Shown here piece after piece: positions 56,796 to 63,252 of a stretch of 64,000 nt of DNA. The notes beneath the pieces were generated by a model, which did not search any database, had not been told where the DNA came from, and worked only from the letters and a program-made list of their open reading frames with translations. The number at the start of each line of letters is the position of its first letter. Position 1 is the first letter of the stretch. The position numbers were made by a program, and so were the translations under genes. This stretch comes from Desulfobacterales bacterium (lineage in GTDB: Bacteria > Desulfobacterota > Desulfobacteria > Desulfobacterales > SpSt-501): the NCBI GenBank assembly GCA_030834695.1, contig JAUQXK010000140.1, forward strand, positions 23,170 to 87,169. Reading direction: 5' to 3'.

Positions 56796-59700
56796 TCACT
56801 CCGGTTTCTTGCCCTTCTTCGCCCCGGCCGCATCCAGCTTGCGCCGCAGCGAATTCAAATCTTTCGCGATCTGCTTCCGGGCTCCGGCCATGGCGATCAA
56901 GAAATCGATCTGATCCAGGACGGAGGCAAATTCGCGCGGGCTGCCCAGCAGGGCCGCATCGCGGTATTTATCGGCGATGAGCTTGGTCTGCCTGGCGGTC
57001 AGCTCGCCCTGACAAAGGACCTGCAACAGCTCGGCGTCGACCCGCATGACAAGGGTCCAAAAGCTCTTCTCCTTCTCGATCGCCCGGTCGAGCTCCGCCT
57101 GCACTTGATGGAGCAGCTGCAGCCGTTCCGAACCGGTTGCGTCGTTGAACGGCGGGATGCCTTTCTGCCATGCCAGGCAAACTTCCGCCGTCAGCCAGTT
57201 CAGCAGCGGATAGGCGTCGAAGCGGCCCTGGTCCTGGGCCAGCTCGAACGCGGCACGGTAGAAGTGGGTCATTTGGGCCAGCGCGGCTTCCCGGCCGTCT
57301 GCGCTGATCCAGGCCTTGCGCTTGTAGGAGCCGGCGAGCAGGGCCAGGCGCTCGCCGGTCTTGGCCAGAACGGGCCGGCCGACCCCATCCGGCTTCTCGC
57401 CGGATCCCGGAGTGAGCCCCATGACCATCTCCAACAGGTGAATGGCCTGGTCGATGTCGGGCAGGAGGGCCGCACAGTTTTCGCCGCTCATTTTACGGGC
57501 CGCCTCGCGGGCCTGAAGGTTGGCCAACTGTTCGATGTCCCTCAGGGTCATCTGGCCGTCTTCGGCATGCAGGGCCTTTTGATAGTAGCGGACGGCACGA
57601 TCGAAGGCCTTCGCCTCTCCGAAGGCCCGGCCCAGCGCGGCGCTGACGCTTCCATGCGCGAGCCAGTTCTTCTGCTTCAGCCAGCGTGCGGACGCCCGCA
57701 GGCGTTTCTGCTCGGCGGCCGTGTCGACCACGGCCATGGTCTTAAGCCGGGCGGCGGTGTTGTTGAGATTCGCCGCCGCCTCGGCGGGGCTCACCCAATC
57801 GATGCCGCGGCGCTCCGGGTCGCCGGCGTCCTGCCGGACCAGGCGATAGTCCGGGTCGCCGTAACATTGGAAGGCGCCCCAGGTGTTGGTGGTCCGATAG
57901 CGCTCGAACGTCGCCTGGCGCGCCGCCTTCACGGCCCGGCCGAACGGCAGGCCCTGCAGCATCTGCTGATAGAACGTGGTGGCGAATACCTCGGCGGCGG
58001 TGTCGACCACCGCCCACCCGGCAGCGACCACCGCGCGCACGCCCATGCGGATGAATTCGGTGGCCACGTTGGCGGCGATGCGGTTGTAGTCGCTGCGTTC
58101 GTTGCGTTCCTCCGGGCTGCGCTGATCTCCGCTCTCGATATACCCCAGGTGGCAGCAGTTGATGAACACCAGCTCCGGCACGAAGCGCATCTGCCGGACT
58201 TCCTGCGGCGAGAGCACGGCATCGTCCCCGATGATCATGCCGGTCACCGGCTGGACGGATGGTGGCTGCTTGGCGAGCAGCGGTTCGGAGAGCTTTTGGC
58301 CGCAGGTTTTGCAGTTGTCCGCGGTTGGGGGCCGATACCGATACACGCCATGGCCGGCCAGATGCAGCACCCGGTAGGCGCGGGCGTAAAGCGCGTGGAT
58401 CACCTGGCGGCTGTCCGGACGGATGCGCGTTTCCACTTGGAACCCGCCCTGGCCGGACAGCTCGCGGCTGACGGCCTCCGCTTCGGACTGCGCGCCCTTG
58501 AGCTCGGGATAGCGGCTGACCGGATCCCCGATCACCAGCGCCGTGGGCTCGGTGACCCCGCGGATCGAGCTGCGGAATTCCACCGCTTCGAGCTGCCGCA
58601 GCAGGCCGTGCTCGACGAACAGCGGTCGTTCGCTCTGGCTCCAGCGGTCGTCGAGCAGTTCCCAGGGGTAGCGCGCGGAGGCTTCGTCCAGCAGCAGCAC
58701 CAGGTCGTTCTGGGCCGTTGCGGCTTCCTTGATTTCGTTCGGCAGCAGCAGCTCATAAAGCGTTCGGGCGACCGTGCGGTTGTCCGACGTCATGCGGATG
58801 GACTGGGCGATGAATTGGTCCACCAGCGTCTGCTGGGTCGACAACAGGCGCACCTCGGTCCGCGCCCGGCGGGTGGACGCGGCGAACCGCAGGCCCCCGT
58901 CCCCGGCTTCGCCGGCCGGCTTGCCTCCCAGAATCTGCAGCCGCTGCCACCACCCCGGCGGCTCCTCGTAGCTGACACGGCAGAGCCCGCTTTCGCTGGG
59001 GTGCAGGTGCAGGCGGCCGTCGAAGTCGAAGTCGCCGCGGAGCGATTCCTGAGCCGTCAGCGACTTCAAGGCCTTGACGGCCAGAATGGCCTGATCCTGC
59101 CAGAGCTCGATGAATTCGATCTCGCGGATGCGTTCGCTCTGTTGGGCCGACGCCAGCGCGCGGTTGGCGTGCCGGACAGCCTCCAGAAGGGCGAAGATCG
59201 AGTCGCTCACCGGCATCCCGCCGGCCCCGGTCCCGATCAGGAGCGCGCTGACGCCCAAATCGTGCGACGCACGGCGGTCTTCTTGCGCATCGGCCGCATC
59301 GATGGCGAATTCGCGCCACTCGGCCACGTATTCCAGCAGGGCGCGCGCCGTGGTCTGGATCAGGGCGGACGCATTCAGGCTGCCGACGGTGCCCAGACCG
59401 ACGACGATCGCCCCCCGCGGCAGCGCCTTGGCGTTCGAACGCAGCCGGGGGTTGATGAAGATGGCGCTGGTGTCGAGGGCGCCCGGGTAGATGCCGAGCC
59501 GGTGGCGGCTGTCCAGCAGCCCTTCCAGAGTCGTGTCCAGGCTCTTTTCGGCGCTGATGATGGTGTCGCCGGCGTAATGACCGACGGCGACCGGATGGCG
59601 GGCATAGCGCAGGTTTCCATGAATGACCCGCACCGCCACCGCACGCTCGCGCCGGGGCCGCGGACGCCGGCGCGGGGATCCGCCGATGACGCCGGCGGCC

Positions 59701-62436: not shown

Positions 62437-63252
62437 TCAGCTGAAAATACGCTTTTTCTTGTTGGCGGTCGTGCCTTCGAGCTGCGGGTGCTGCGGATAC
62501 CCGGCTTCGTCCAGCAGATGGTTCAACCGGCTGCACAGCTGCGCATAGTTGATGCTGTAGCCGGCATCGCGGATCGCCTGGATGGCGAAATAGGTCATGG
62601 CGCCGTGGTATTTCCCGCCGATGAGCGCGTCATAGGAGTACTCGTTGGCCGTACAGCCGGAGAGCAGGATATCTTTCATTTGAGACTGGGGATGCGTGAT
62701 GTTGCGGCGGTCCACGGCCTTGAACGGATTGGAAAGGACCGACTTGCCGATCAGCGACGGGTGCAGAAAACGCACCCGGCGGTCGTCCGGGGTCTTGAGC
62801 CAGGGGATGTTTTCATTGATGGCCGCGCGGGTGACGGTGCCCGAGTGGCAGGAGTCGGAGATGACGGTGAACGCGACGCCCTTCGCCAGGCCGGAGAAAA
62901 GCTCGCGCAGTTCGTCGTCGACGATGAGGTTCTGATCGCAGTCATAGGGGCAAAGGGCCTCGTCGTAAAGCGCTTCATCGCCGCCGGTATCGGCCAGGTA
63001 GGTGCCGTGGGAGGAATTGGTGAACACCAACACGTCGCCGGATTTGGTGCCGGACAGCAGCTTCTTCAGCCCGTCCAGGATGGCGGCCCGGGTGGCCTGG
63101 GAATCGAGCAGCAGCTTGACGCTAGCCGACGGAAAGGAATAGTTCTTGGTGAGAAGATCGGCCCAGGCCTTGGCGTCGTTGACGCAGCCGTTCAGGTCGG
63201 ACCCCTCGCCGGGGTAGTCGTTGATGCCCACGCACAATGCTTTCTTCGCCAT
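62437..63252 (-). CDS. Caspase-family (peptidase C14, orthocaspase/metacaspase-like) protease
   Basis: ATG at 63252 with AGGAGG 6 nt upstream. Contains KALCVGINDYPG, the catalytic His in VLVFTNSSHG (H82) and the catalytic Cys in FTVISDSCHSG (C135). It lies 79 nt upstream of the giant CHAT-lipase gene on the same strand. Confidence 0.88.
   Translation of the reverse strand: MAKKALCVGINDYPGEGSDLNGCVNDAKAWADLLTKNYSFPSASVKLLLDSQATRAAILDGLKKLLSGTKSGDVLVFTNSSHGTYLADTGGDEALYDEALCPYDCDQNLIVDDELRELFSGLAKGVAFTVISDSCHSGTVTRAAINENIPWLKTPDDRRVRFLHPSLIGKSVLSNPFKAVDRRNITHPQSQMKDILLSGCTANEYSYDALIGGKYHGAMTYFAIQAIRDAGYSINYAQLCSRLNHLLDEAGYPQHPQLEGTTANKKKRIFS

Follow-up and report, generated by a model that had tools for sequence, protein, structure and literature searches.

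The window analysed here, a stretch of 64,000 nucleotides (nt) from a Desulfobacterales bacterium (contig JAUQXK010000140.1, positions 23,170 to 87,169), carries close to its right-hand end two adjacent genes on the minus strand. The first, at 62437..63252, codes for a stand-alone metacaspase-like protease of family C14 (271 amino acids from the ATG; an alternative TTG start lies at 63270), and the second, hereafter the large gene, at 56796..62357, for a protein of 1853 amino acids in which two predicted lipases, a CHAT protease and a helical repeat domain are joined. The spacer between them (62358..62436, 79 nt) contains the GGGAGG Shine-Dalgarno sequence that precedes the ATG of the large gene, and the ATG of the caspase is preceded by a Shine-Dalgarno sequence of its own, GAAGGAGGA. 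A sequence-only reading of this DNA had described the open reading frames (ORFs), their strand, the 79-nt gap and both Shine-Dalgarno sequences, and the six-frame ORF list and upstream sequence agree with it exactly. Since a scan of the spacer found no terminator-like site, co-transcription is likely, and the two genes probably share one transcript. A divergent intergenic region of 513 nt (63253..63765), the presumptive promoter region, lies upstream of the caspase gene; it contains on the minus strand a sigma-70-like site, TTGACT-18-TAGAAT (63588..63559), and conservation in four related loci (L001, L081, L084 and L002) covers the ∼100-230 nt of it nearest to the caspase start.

The structure of the large protein was predicted with AlphaFold as two halves, from 43-sequence alignments (mean pLDDT, the predicted local distance difference test score, of 84 for residues 1-900 and 82 for residues 880-1853); each half was compared by Foldseek with the Protein Data Bank (PDB), and residue conservation was counted in an alignment of 81 homologues. 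The N-terminal domain, or N-domain (residues 1-185, 61803..62357, on the minus strand like all parts of this gene), is beta-rich in the model and has no Pfam match even at E≤10; the earlier reading had left the first ∼180 amino acids unassigned. Two alpha/beta-hydrolase modules follow. One, at residues 186-520 (60798..61802), is of the DUF7379 family (PF24096; 119.2 bits for a cut-off of 33, E 2.7e-34) and shows an IHG motif together with S263 (in YSRGG), D451 and H481, the last three being invariant in the 81 homologues. The other, at residues 528-880 (59718..60776), is an LCAT/LPLA2-like lipase (PF02450; 28.1 bits for a cut-off of 21, with PDB profile matches to LPLA2 and LCAT); besides a PGSMG motif it has a triad of S638 (in AHSMGG), kept in 78 of the 81 homologues, and D808 (in GDGRV) and H831 (in EHGD), kept in all of them. 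Foldseek matched the N-terminal half to lysosomal phospholipase A2/LCAT (4x92, E 6.9e-10, template-modelling (TM) score 0.62), and also to the lipase Tle4 of the type VI secretion system (T6SS) (4r1d, E 2.7e-7) and to Pseudomonas lipases. A phospholipase or acyltransferase role of the LCAT-like domain is presumed. As a separate observation on the DNA of these modules, a 35-nt direct repeat with 77% identity (60430..60464 and 61555..61589) falls on the two nucleophile elbows (…HSMGGLV and …YSRGGLV), which hints at a common ancestry of the two hydrolase domains.

Beyond a disordered basic linker (residues 881-904), the second half of the protein begins with a domain at residues 905-1130 (58968..59645) that has an LLIGTGAGG loop, invariant H927 and E937, and D931 in 79 of the 81 homologues. 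Foldseek relates it to macroH2A1.1 (1yd9, E 3.5e-5, TM 0.65), TTHA0132 (2dx6, TM 0.68) and MACROD2, and leucyl-aminopeptidase N-domains match it as well. The 'M17-N/macro-like flavour' that had been perceived in this region thus holds at the level of the fold, but not at that of the sequence: Pfam and hhalign both lead us to reject a canonical macro domain, and because the domain shows neither membership by sequence profile nor the ADP-ribose motifs, we limit its name to 'macro-like fold'. The next segment, a connector (residues 1131-1195, 58773..58967) that is beta-rich in the model, is conserved jointly with the macro-like domain. The CHAT protease itself (residues 1196-1505, 57843..58772; PF12770, 111.1 bits for a cut-off of 24, E 8.9e-32) has its H1336 (HLAGHG) and C1401/C1402 (INCCHLG) invariant in the 81 homologues; its best Foldseek match is Csx29 (8eey_B, E 2e-5), and SAVED-CHAT (8tl0), separase and gingipain RgpB are found too, the C-terminal half returning TPR proteins in addition. 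Residues 1506-1853, which with the stop codon occupy 56796..57842, form a TPR-S repeat domain (PF20308; 51.7 bits for a cut-off of 27.6, E 1.5e-13), all-helical in the model and presumed to be a sensor, the word that the Pfam name itself uses. Both lipase modules with their intact Ser-Asp-His, the CHAT domain with its His and Cys, and the helical TPR-like C terminus had been proposed by eye; profile and fold comparisons bear them out, and no degenerate active-site pattern is seen in the homologues.

The assignment of the upstream gene to the caspases, with its His in SSHG and its Cys in DSCHSG, proved equally sound. The protein matches Peptidase_C14 (PF00656) with 104.5 bits for a cut-off of 21.4 (E 9e-30), and among solved structures it is nearest to plant and yeast metacaspases and to Geobacter GSU0716 (PDB sequence matches of 6e-29 for Arabidopsis metacaspase-4 and 2.4e-20 for GSU0716). 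The dyad, H82 and C135, is invariant across 12 partner caspases. A metacaspase-type preference for Arg or Lys at P1 and an activation dependent on Ca2+ or on processing can only be inferred, from the DSCHSG motif and an acidic GDE/DE cluster; the C14 and C11 families both favour Arg at P1.

Relatives of the large gene are widespread. A pattern scan over one genome per species gave at least 600 matches; 594 of the 600 matches listed, all on species-representative contigs, encode relatives, and the 80 best loci were analysed in detail. The proteins of these 80 loci have 36-89% identity to that of the window and come from Desulfobacterota, Acidobacteriota, Nitrospirota, Methylomirabilota, Verrucomicrobiota, Acidimicrobiia and many Beta- and Gammaproteobacteria. 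Among the carriers that have been cultured are Azotobacter chroococcum DSM 2286, Thauera, Denitromonas, Rhodoferax antarcticus and Desulforhabdus, and the closest relative among the matches listed is an uncultured Desulfatibacillum metagenome-assembled genome. The seven-part architecture is present in 80 out of 80 loci, split over two ORFs in one of them. Searched exhaustively by HMMER, the macro-like domain plus connector yielded 1443 clusters at 50% identity (1157 with E≤1e-10), which fall into three length classes whose composition was established by Pfam on examples: proteins of ∼900-1050 amino acids consist of macro-like–CHAT–TPR-S only, those of ∼1200-1460 have one lipase (DUF7379 or LCAT-like) in front of this unit, and those of ∼1750-1930 are of the two-lipase form seen in the window. 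In the relatives, the macro-like domain is always N-terminal to CHAT. Since macro-like–CHAT–TPR-S is kept while the number of lipases is zero, one or two, the core is constant and the lipases behave as putative N-terminal effector modules placed on it. The earlier suggestion that the lipases are effectors and the helical repeat a sensor fits this arrangement, as it fits the fastest divergence being in the TPR-S domain and the N-domain (see below). No relative of the large gene was found in the viral contigs of IMG/VR; we count this as neutral for the function of the system, and on this ground the idea of a phage-borne system was rejected.

Three individual cases may be mentioned here. A relative of 1945 amino acids (P0107) has before its N-domain an extra N-terminal extension of ∼134 amino acids, for which precomputed Pfam gives YEATS/pYEATS (PF03366, PF20305); it is, on this annotation, a putative additional N-terminal module on the shared chassis. 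The A. chroococcum DSM 2286 locus (L053) has tandem full-length paralogues (1937..7432 and 9560..15208), ∼2 kb apart, with a caspase gene only before the first. Another relative, P0038, was considered as a caspase fusion of the Rosetta stone kind and discarded: its PF00656 label comes from cross-matching by the CHAT region, and there is no additional caspase domain.

To what extent the caspase and the large gene belong together can be judged from the same 80 loci, 7 of which have too little upstream DNA, leaving 73 informative ones. A C14 gene lies directly upstream, on the same strand and with gaps of 4-160 nt, in 35 of the 80, and these loci occur in Desulfobacterota, Nitrospirota, Beta- and Gammaproteobacteria. 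In 6 loci (L014, L022, L031, L032, L047 and L052) the upstream slot is filled by Peptidase_C11, of the clostripain family, which in L047 and L052 is the C-terminal domain of a ∼1545-amino-acid protein; in 2 other cases a protein of 1450-1503 amino acids with a C-terminal caspase domain lies directly downstream. An adjacent clan-CD protease is thus present in 43 of the 73 informative loci. On a neighbour-joining tree, the C14 partners occupy two or three clades, within which they are sporadically lost, and the C11 partners appear in four scattered places. That C11, an unrelated family of the same clan, displaces C14 is good evidence that the slot is functional. The remaining 30 loci have no adjoining clan-CD protease, so that a proteolytic cascade cannot be obligatory. 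As judged from gene order, therefore, the pairing of the two genes is real yet optional; the expected co-occurrence stands for the same-strand C14 neighbour and for clan-CD proteases as a group, but not for these 30 loci.

A reciprocal test started from 80 metagenome loci with relatives of the caspase (40-85% identity), of which 64 were informative. In about half of these 64, the downstream protein shares domains with the large protein: the partners are stand-alone CHAT proteins (390-510 amino acids), macro-like–CHAT–TPR-S, LCAT–CHAT, split lipase genes and the full-length form. Hence the conserved link is that of the caspase with CHAT or the macro-like–CHAT unit, not with the lipase, and on either side it is frequent without being obligatory. 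These results also bear on the possibility that the caspase is an incidental neighbour and that the large protein works alone. The 30 partner-less loci would be readily explained in this way, as would the unrelated genes found downstream of many caspase relatives. However, chance does not easily account for same-strand adjacency at 4-160 nt in 35 of 80 loci over several phyla, for the C11 family taking the same slot, for the pairing of caspase relatives with CHAT proteins of other architectures, or for the retention of the caspase, at 87% identity, in a syntenic locus (L002). An incidental caspase is, in our opinion, very unlikely.

Comparison of closely related loci provides a view of how the large gene evolves. 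In loci L001 and L084, collinearity with the window extends through the trp leader located downstream of the large gene. In L002, which is syntenic as well and was compared with 52000..64000 of the window, identity is 89% for TrpE, 92% for TrpG, 92% for TrpD and 87% for the caspase, and drops to 55% for the large protein as a whole, to 42% for its N-domain and to 40% for its TPR-S domain. This pattern points to allele replacement or diversifying selection limited to the large gene. The same terminal domains stand out when all 81 sequences are compared, mean pairwise identity being 30% for the N-domain and 29% for TPR-S, against 44-53% for the enzymatic domains. In L081, the same block, with 81% nucleotide identity, is found in another neighbourhood (toxin-antitoxin, TIR and patatin genes), and the homology to the window stops exactly at the stop codon of the large gene. 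Rapid divergence in terminal, non-catalytic domains, together with a relocated block, is what one would expect if the gene took part in conflict and bore a recognition surface, rather than if it encoded a housekeeping lipase.

A non-immune function should nevertheless be weighed at this point, namely regulated lipid remodelling, or autolysis during stress or development (for biofilm matrix or nutrient release), in which proteolysis would tune the lipase. The module sits among housekeeping genes, beside the trp operon; L082 is likewise in a housekeeping context, and without a protease partner; conservation of the architecture across phyla is very high; and no known defence model is matched. Against this, divergence is much quicker in the large gene than in the syntenic flanks (55% versus ∼90% identity), the block is found in differing genomic contexts, TIR, patatin, nSTAND1, toxin-antitoxin and endolysin-like domains recur nearby, and TPR-S and CHAT domains of these types are otherwise known from conflict systems. 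We consider a non-immune role quite improbable.

The genes that recur around the relatives show that the description of the locus as a two-gene module was too narrow: lysozyme-family, TIR-type, M15 endolysin-like and patatin genes all come back in several loci. The first of these is seen in the window itself, where the 5′ end of a gene divergent from the caspase (63766..64000, plus strand, 78 codons) runs off the window; it is identical to the first 78 amino acids of a 326-amino-acid protein (P0269), which has 81% identity to its orthologue in L084 and 58% to that in L081. 'Lysozyme family protein' is the Joint Genome Institute (JGI) name for this family, which has at least 1973 matches; no match was obtained in Pfam, NCBIfam, PHROGs or PDB sequences, so that the name stands on the JGI annotation alone and is unconfirmed. 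Family members sampled from long contigs were, in 3 cases out of 3, beside a DUF7379–LCAT–CHAT–TPR-S gene, and the same 3 loci also carry C14, TIR_2, nSTAND1 and TPR-S proteins. In the closest relatives, L081, L084 and L002, the lysozyme-family gene, divergent from the caspase, is followed by a gene for TIR_2 or for a C14–TIR fusion. The fusion, a C14–TIR_2 protein of 416 amino acids, is encoded at 625..1875 in L084 and at 5038..6303 in L002 (minus strand in both), two genes upstream of the module and on the opposite strand from it; its family, of at least 80 clusters, is found in several metagenomes on the same contigs as the lysozyme-family gene.

More generally, a TIR-type gene is present within 10 kb in 27 of the 80 loci (a union of 17 loci with a ∼680-amino-acid protein and 10 with other TIR genes). 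The ∼680-amino-acid protein (L018, L026, L035, L059, L060, L073, L074 and others), encoded beside the large gene, sometimes with a patatin gene between the two, has a TIR-like N terminus (PADLOC model of a TIR effector of CBASS, the cyclic-oligonucleotide-based antiphage signalling systems; E 7e-7), a TPR-S middle part (Pfam, E 4e-10) and a SLOG-like C terminus (GGACGGD). TIR genes are also found in L083, L166 and L167, and the TIR matches resemble the ThsB and CBASS TIR models. Another way to see the system is thus a Thoeris-like one, in which the neighbouring TIR protein would be the true sensor and an ADP-ribose-derived messenger, by binding to the macro-like domain, would activate CHAT and the lipases. 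There is a precedent on the effector side, since in Thoeris a Macro domain senses His-ADP-ribose (type II) and the caspase-like ThsE is TIR-activated (type IV) (10.64898/2025.12.03.692087), and the macro-like fold, directly N-terminal to CHAT in every relative, has the position that SAVED has in SAVED-CHAT. But 53 of the 80 loci have no TIR-type gene inside 10 kb, and the macro-like domain matches no macro profile and gives no significant hhalign alignment; moreover, the leucyl-aminopeptidase N-domains that fit its fold equally well do not bind ADP-ribose, and the large protein has a TPR-S 'sensor' of its own. In the window's genome, the position equivalent to that of the TIR gene falls beyond the window end, and a search for the C14–TIR family brought up no protein of the window's own contig. 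All in all, we find a Thoeris-like mode of action quite unlikely.

Other neighbours are of the effector type. An M15 peptidase, phage-endolysin-like (phrog_894, E 4.6e-27), lies directly downstream in 14 loci, where it overlaps or abuts the stop codon of the large gene, and a ∼520-amino-acid multi-transmembrane protein of no recognised family occurs in 8 loci, after the M15 peptidase where both are present (L041, L042, L044, L055, L057, L059, L060, L065-L067, L072, L077 and L079 for the two together). In 7 of the 80 loci there is a patatin that resembles phospholipase effectors of CBASS (E 8e-44), and nSTAND1 genes are near some relatives. One could also imagine, from such peptidoglycan-hydrolase-like neighbours and from the match of the N-terminal half to Tle4 and to secreted Pseudomonas lipases, that the large protein is an exported Tle-like antibacterial lipase toxin directed at competitors and processed for delivery by the proteases. 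We hold this to be extremely unlikely, as the large protein, the caspase and the lysozyme-family protein all lack a predicted signal peptide or transmembrane segment, the annotated neighbourhoods showed no VgrG, PAAR, Rhs or immunity-type gene, and CHAT and TPR-S are protease and sensor domains of the cytoplasmic type.

The reading that we prefer is that the locus encodes an uncharacterised conflict or cell-suicide module that has no NTPase and in which a protease (CHAT or caspase) would control the fused lipases. We put the chances of this overall reading at about even, and any single mechanistic step is much less certain. The fast-evolving TPR-S domain, or possibly the N-domain or the macro-like domain, would detect the trigger; the macro-like domain may relay the TPR-S signal or bind a small molecule, as suggested by its being placed where SAVED sits in SAVED-CHAT. 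Detection would activate the CHAT protease, which could form a short cascade with the adjacent metacaspase-like protease, either CHAT processing the caspase or the caspase processing CHAT. Also, or alternatively, CHAT would relieve an auto-inhibition of the fused lipases, by release or by de-repression, and the freed lipases would damage the membrane of their own cell. Lysis might then be finished, in many relatives, by peptidoglycan hydrolases without a signal sequence (the lysozyme-family neighbour in the window, the M15 endolysin-like peptidase at other loci). A bolder version, which we regard as unlikely, would be that of a self-contained, NTPase-free lysis machine: the hypervariable TPR-S domain or N-domain, or else a TIR-made messenger of the ADP-ribose type bound by the macro-like domain, would fire a cascade from CHAT to the metacaspase, the two phospholipases would be unleashed to damage the membrane in a holin-like manner, and the signal-less wall hydrolases, thereby given access to the wall, would lyse the infected cell. 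If true, bacteria of hundreds of species would possess an immune or cell-death system of a new class.

Several observations speak against a protease-controlled conflict module. The partner protease is missing from the 30 informative loci mentioned above, and about half of the close metagenomic relatives of the caspase have no detectable CHAT or lipase neighbour. The macro-like domain, to which a signalling role might be ascribed, has no Pfam match at E≤10, and its comparison by hhalign with Af1521, YmdB and SARS-CoV-2 Mac1 gave a probability of 0.1, which is not significant. The linker at residues 886-908 (SPRRRPRPRRER) was considered as the cleavage site of the partner protease and is unsupported as such, its basicity not tracking the presence of a partner: the large Beta/Gammaproteobacterial clade with C14 partners has acidic or neutral linkers, and basic linkers are found in many proteins that have no partner. 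Neither PADLOC nor NCBIfam has a model that the large protein matches, and in the literature on DUF7379 and on CHAT combined with lipase, macro or TPR domains we found no description of the architecture and no tested member, which agrees with the initial remark that no characterised system has such a composition. The remainder of the window (1..56000), as seen by Pfam on its ORFs, is ordinary housekeeping chromosome with no defence island (PriA, a RecD2-like helicase, pyruvate phosphate dikinase, a P-type ATPase, an OmpA/BON protein, trpC and a fumarate-reductase-like flavoprotein). Finally, the neighbour tallies in the 80 loci are raw counts.

The pieces of the module (C14, CHAT, LCAT-like lipase, DUF7379, TPR-S) are known, as are caspase/CHAT-based conflict systems, and because of this the module belongs with the latter and is not categorically new. 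Biochemically, a CHAT–caspase gene pair has a single precedent, SAVED-CHAT and PCaspase, from the type III-B CRISPR–CBASS hybrid of Haliangium ochraceum, in which SAVED-CHAT cleaves and activates PCaspase, which then degrades many proteins (Steens et al.; 10.1101/2023.06.23.546230). In both cases a CHAT with an N-terminal domain of the ligand-sensor type is beside a small stand-alone caspase whose His/Cys dyad is N-terminal (H79/C146 in PCaspase, H82/C135 here), the likeness of the two caspases noted here being one of gene layout and dyad. In contrast, SAVED (Pfam, PADLOC), Cas10, CD-NTase and CRISPR are lacking here, a macro-like fold occupies the sensor position, and CHAT is joined in cis to two lipases and a TPR-S domain. 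The NTP-dependent ternary conflict systems, in the part of the source that was searched, combine caspase-superfamily domains with an alpha/beta-hydrolase, read as a co-operating effector pair (Kaur, Burroughs, Iyer and Aravind 2020, PMC7159879), and that text does not describe a caspase + lipase + CHAT + repeat architecture. The pairing of alpha/beta-hydrolase and caspase is thus shared, as far as that text goes, and the TPR-S type recurs in neighbours of our loci. However, no NTPase core of the MoxR, vWA, VMAP, iSTAND or GAP1 kind adjoins the pair in the window, and the hydrolases, CHAT and repeats are here in one polypeptide, with the second protease separate.

Craspase, made of Cas7-11 and the TPR-CHAT protein Csx29, a sequence-specific protease switched on by a conformational signal, likewise combines TPR and CHAT, and Csx29 is the best Foldseek match of our CHAT domain; unlike Craspase, the present system has no Cas7-11, CRISPR RNA or Csx30/31, its TPR is C-terminal instead of N-terminal, and lipases are fused to it. 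No cas genes were found among the window ORFs scanned with Pfam. With Thoeris II and IV there are in common the TIR genes recurring nearby, a macro-like fold and caspase-family proteases, but macro family membership by sequence is lacking, TIR is missing from most loci, and the effector would be a lipase, not a pore or a promiscuous protease alone. As had been stated, no gasdermin, CRISPR, cyclase or NTPase partner is beside the pair, which is adjoined only by trpE and the lysozyme-family gene, and no gasdermin is reported in the annotated relatives. The resemblance to T6SS Tle effectors is limited to the fold of Tle4, the annotated loci having no T6SS or immunity-type neighbours. Another analogy is provided by the NLR-like proteins of fungi and bacteria, which have an N-terminal SesB-like or patatin lipase effector and a C-terminal TPR, WD or ANK sensor. 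The order of an N-terminal lipase, a central switch and a C-terminal repeat sensor quick to diversify is the same, but the central switch would here be CHAT with the macro-like fold, not a NACHT or NB-ARC NTPase.

In gasdermin systems, Craspase, SAVED-CHAT/PCaspase and type IV Thoeris, proteases of the caspase family are coming to light as central executioners in bacterial immunity, and the present family would add to them a branch both widespread and overlooked, with its at least 600 species-representative matches and its 1443 clusters. It would be unusual in that one polypeptide unites the protease with presumed lipase effectors and a presumed sensor, in that the system does without any NTPase, cyclase or CRISPR component, and in that a second clan-CD protease and cell-wall hydrolases are often alongside. 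As a compact system of two to four genes, it could serve to ask how CHAT is switched on without oligonucleotide signals, and it also bears on protease cascades as a general design of prokaryotic death and on lipases as protease-gated killing domains.

The downstream flank of the pair deserves a few words. The large gene stops 22 nt short of a TTGACA promoter box (56769..56774, minus strand) that belongs to the trp unit. Next on the same strand come a Trp leader peptide, MKPKTIHTFDSNLKRCSWWWRAHPTG (56642..56722), of 26 codons with three consecutive Trp codons (…CSWWWRAHPTG), and, 3′ of it and ahead of trpE, a perfect 17-bp hairpin (56527..56564); trpE, trpG, trpD and trpC lie downstream of the leader and hairpins. 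A promoter box, a leader peptide and hairpins of its own make of the trp operon a separate transcription unit, and, from these elements, its leader region is a predicted classical attenuator. No Rfam family matches the attenuator, nor did the Rfam search of the whole window give any match, and a search for flanking repeats around the module gave nothing above chance. The view of the caspase and the large gene as a discrete operon is in line with the 513-nt gap on one side and the independent trp unit on the other. Elsewhere in the window, the G+C content climbs to 0.70-0.73 around 46-54 kb.

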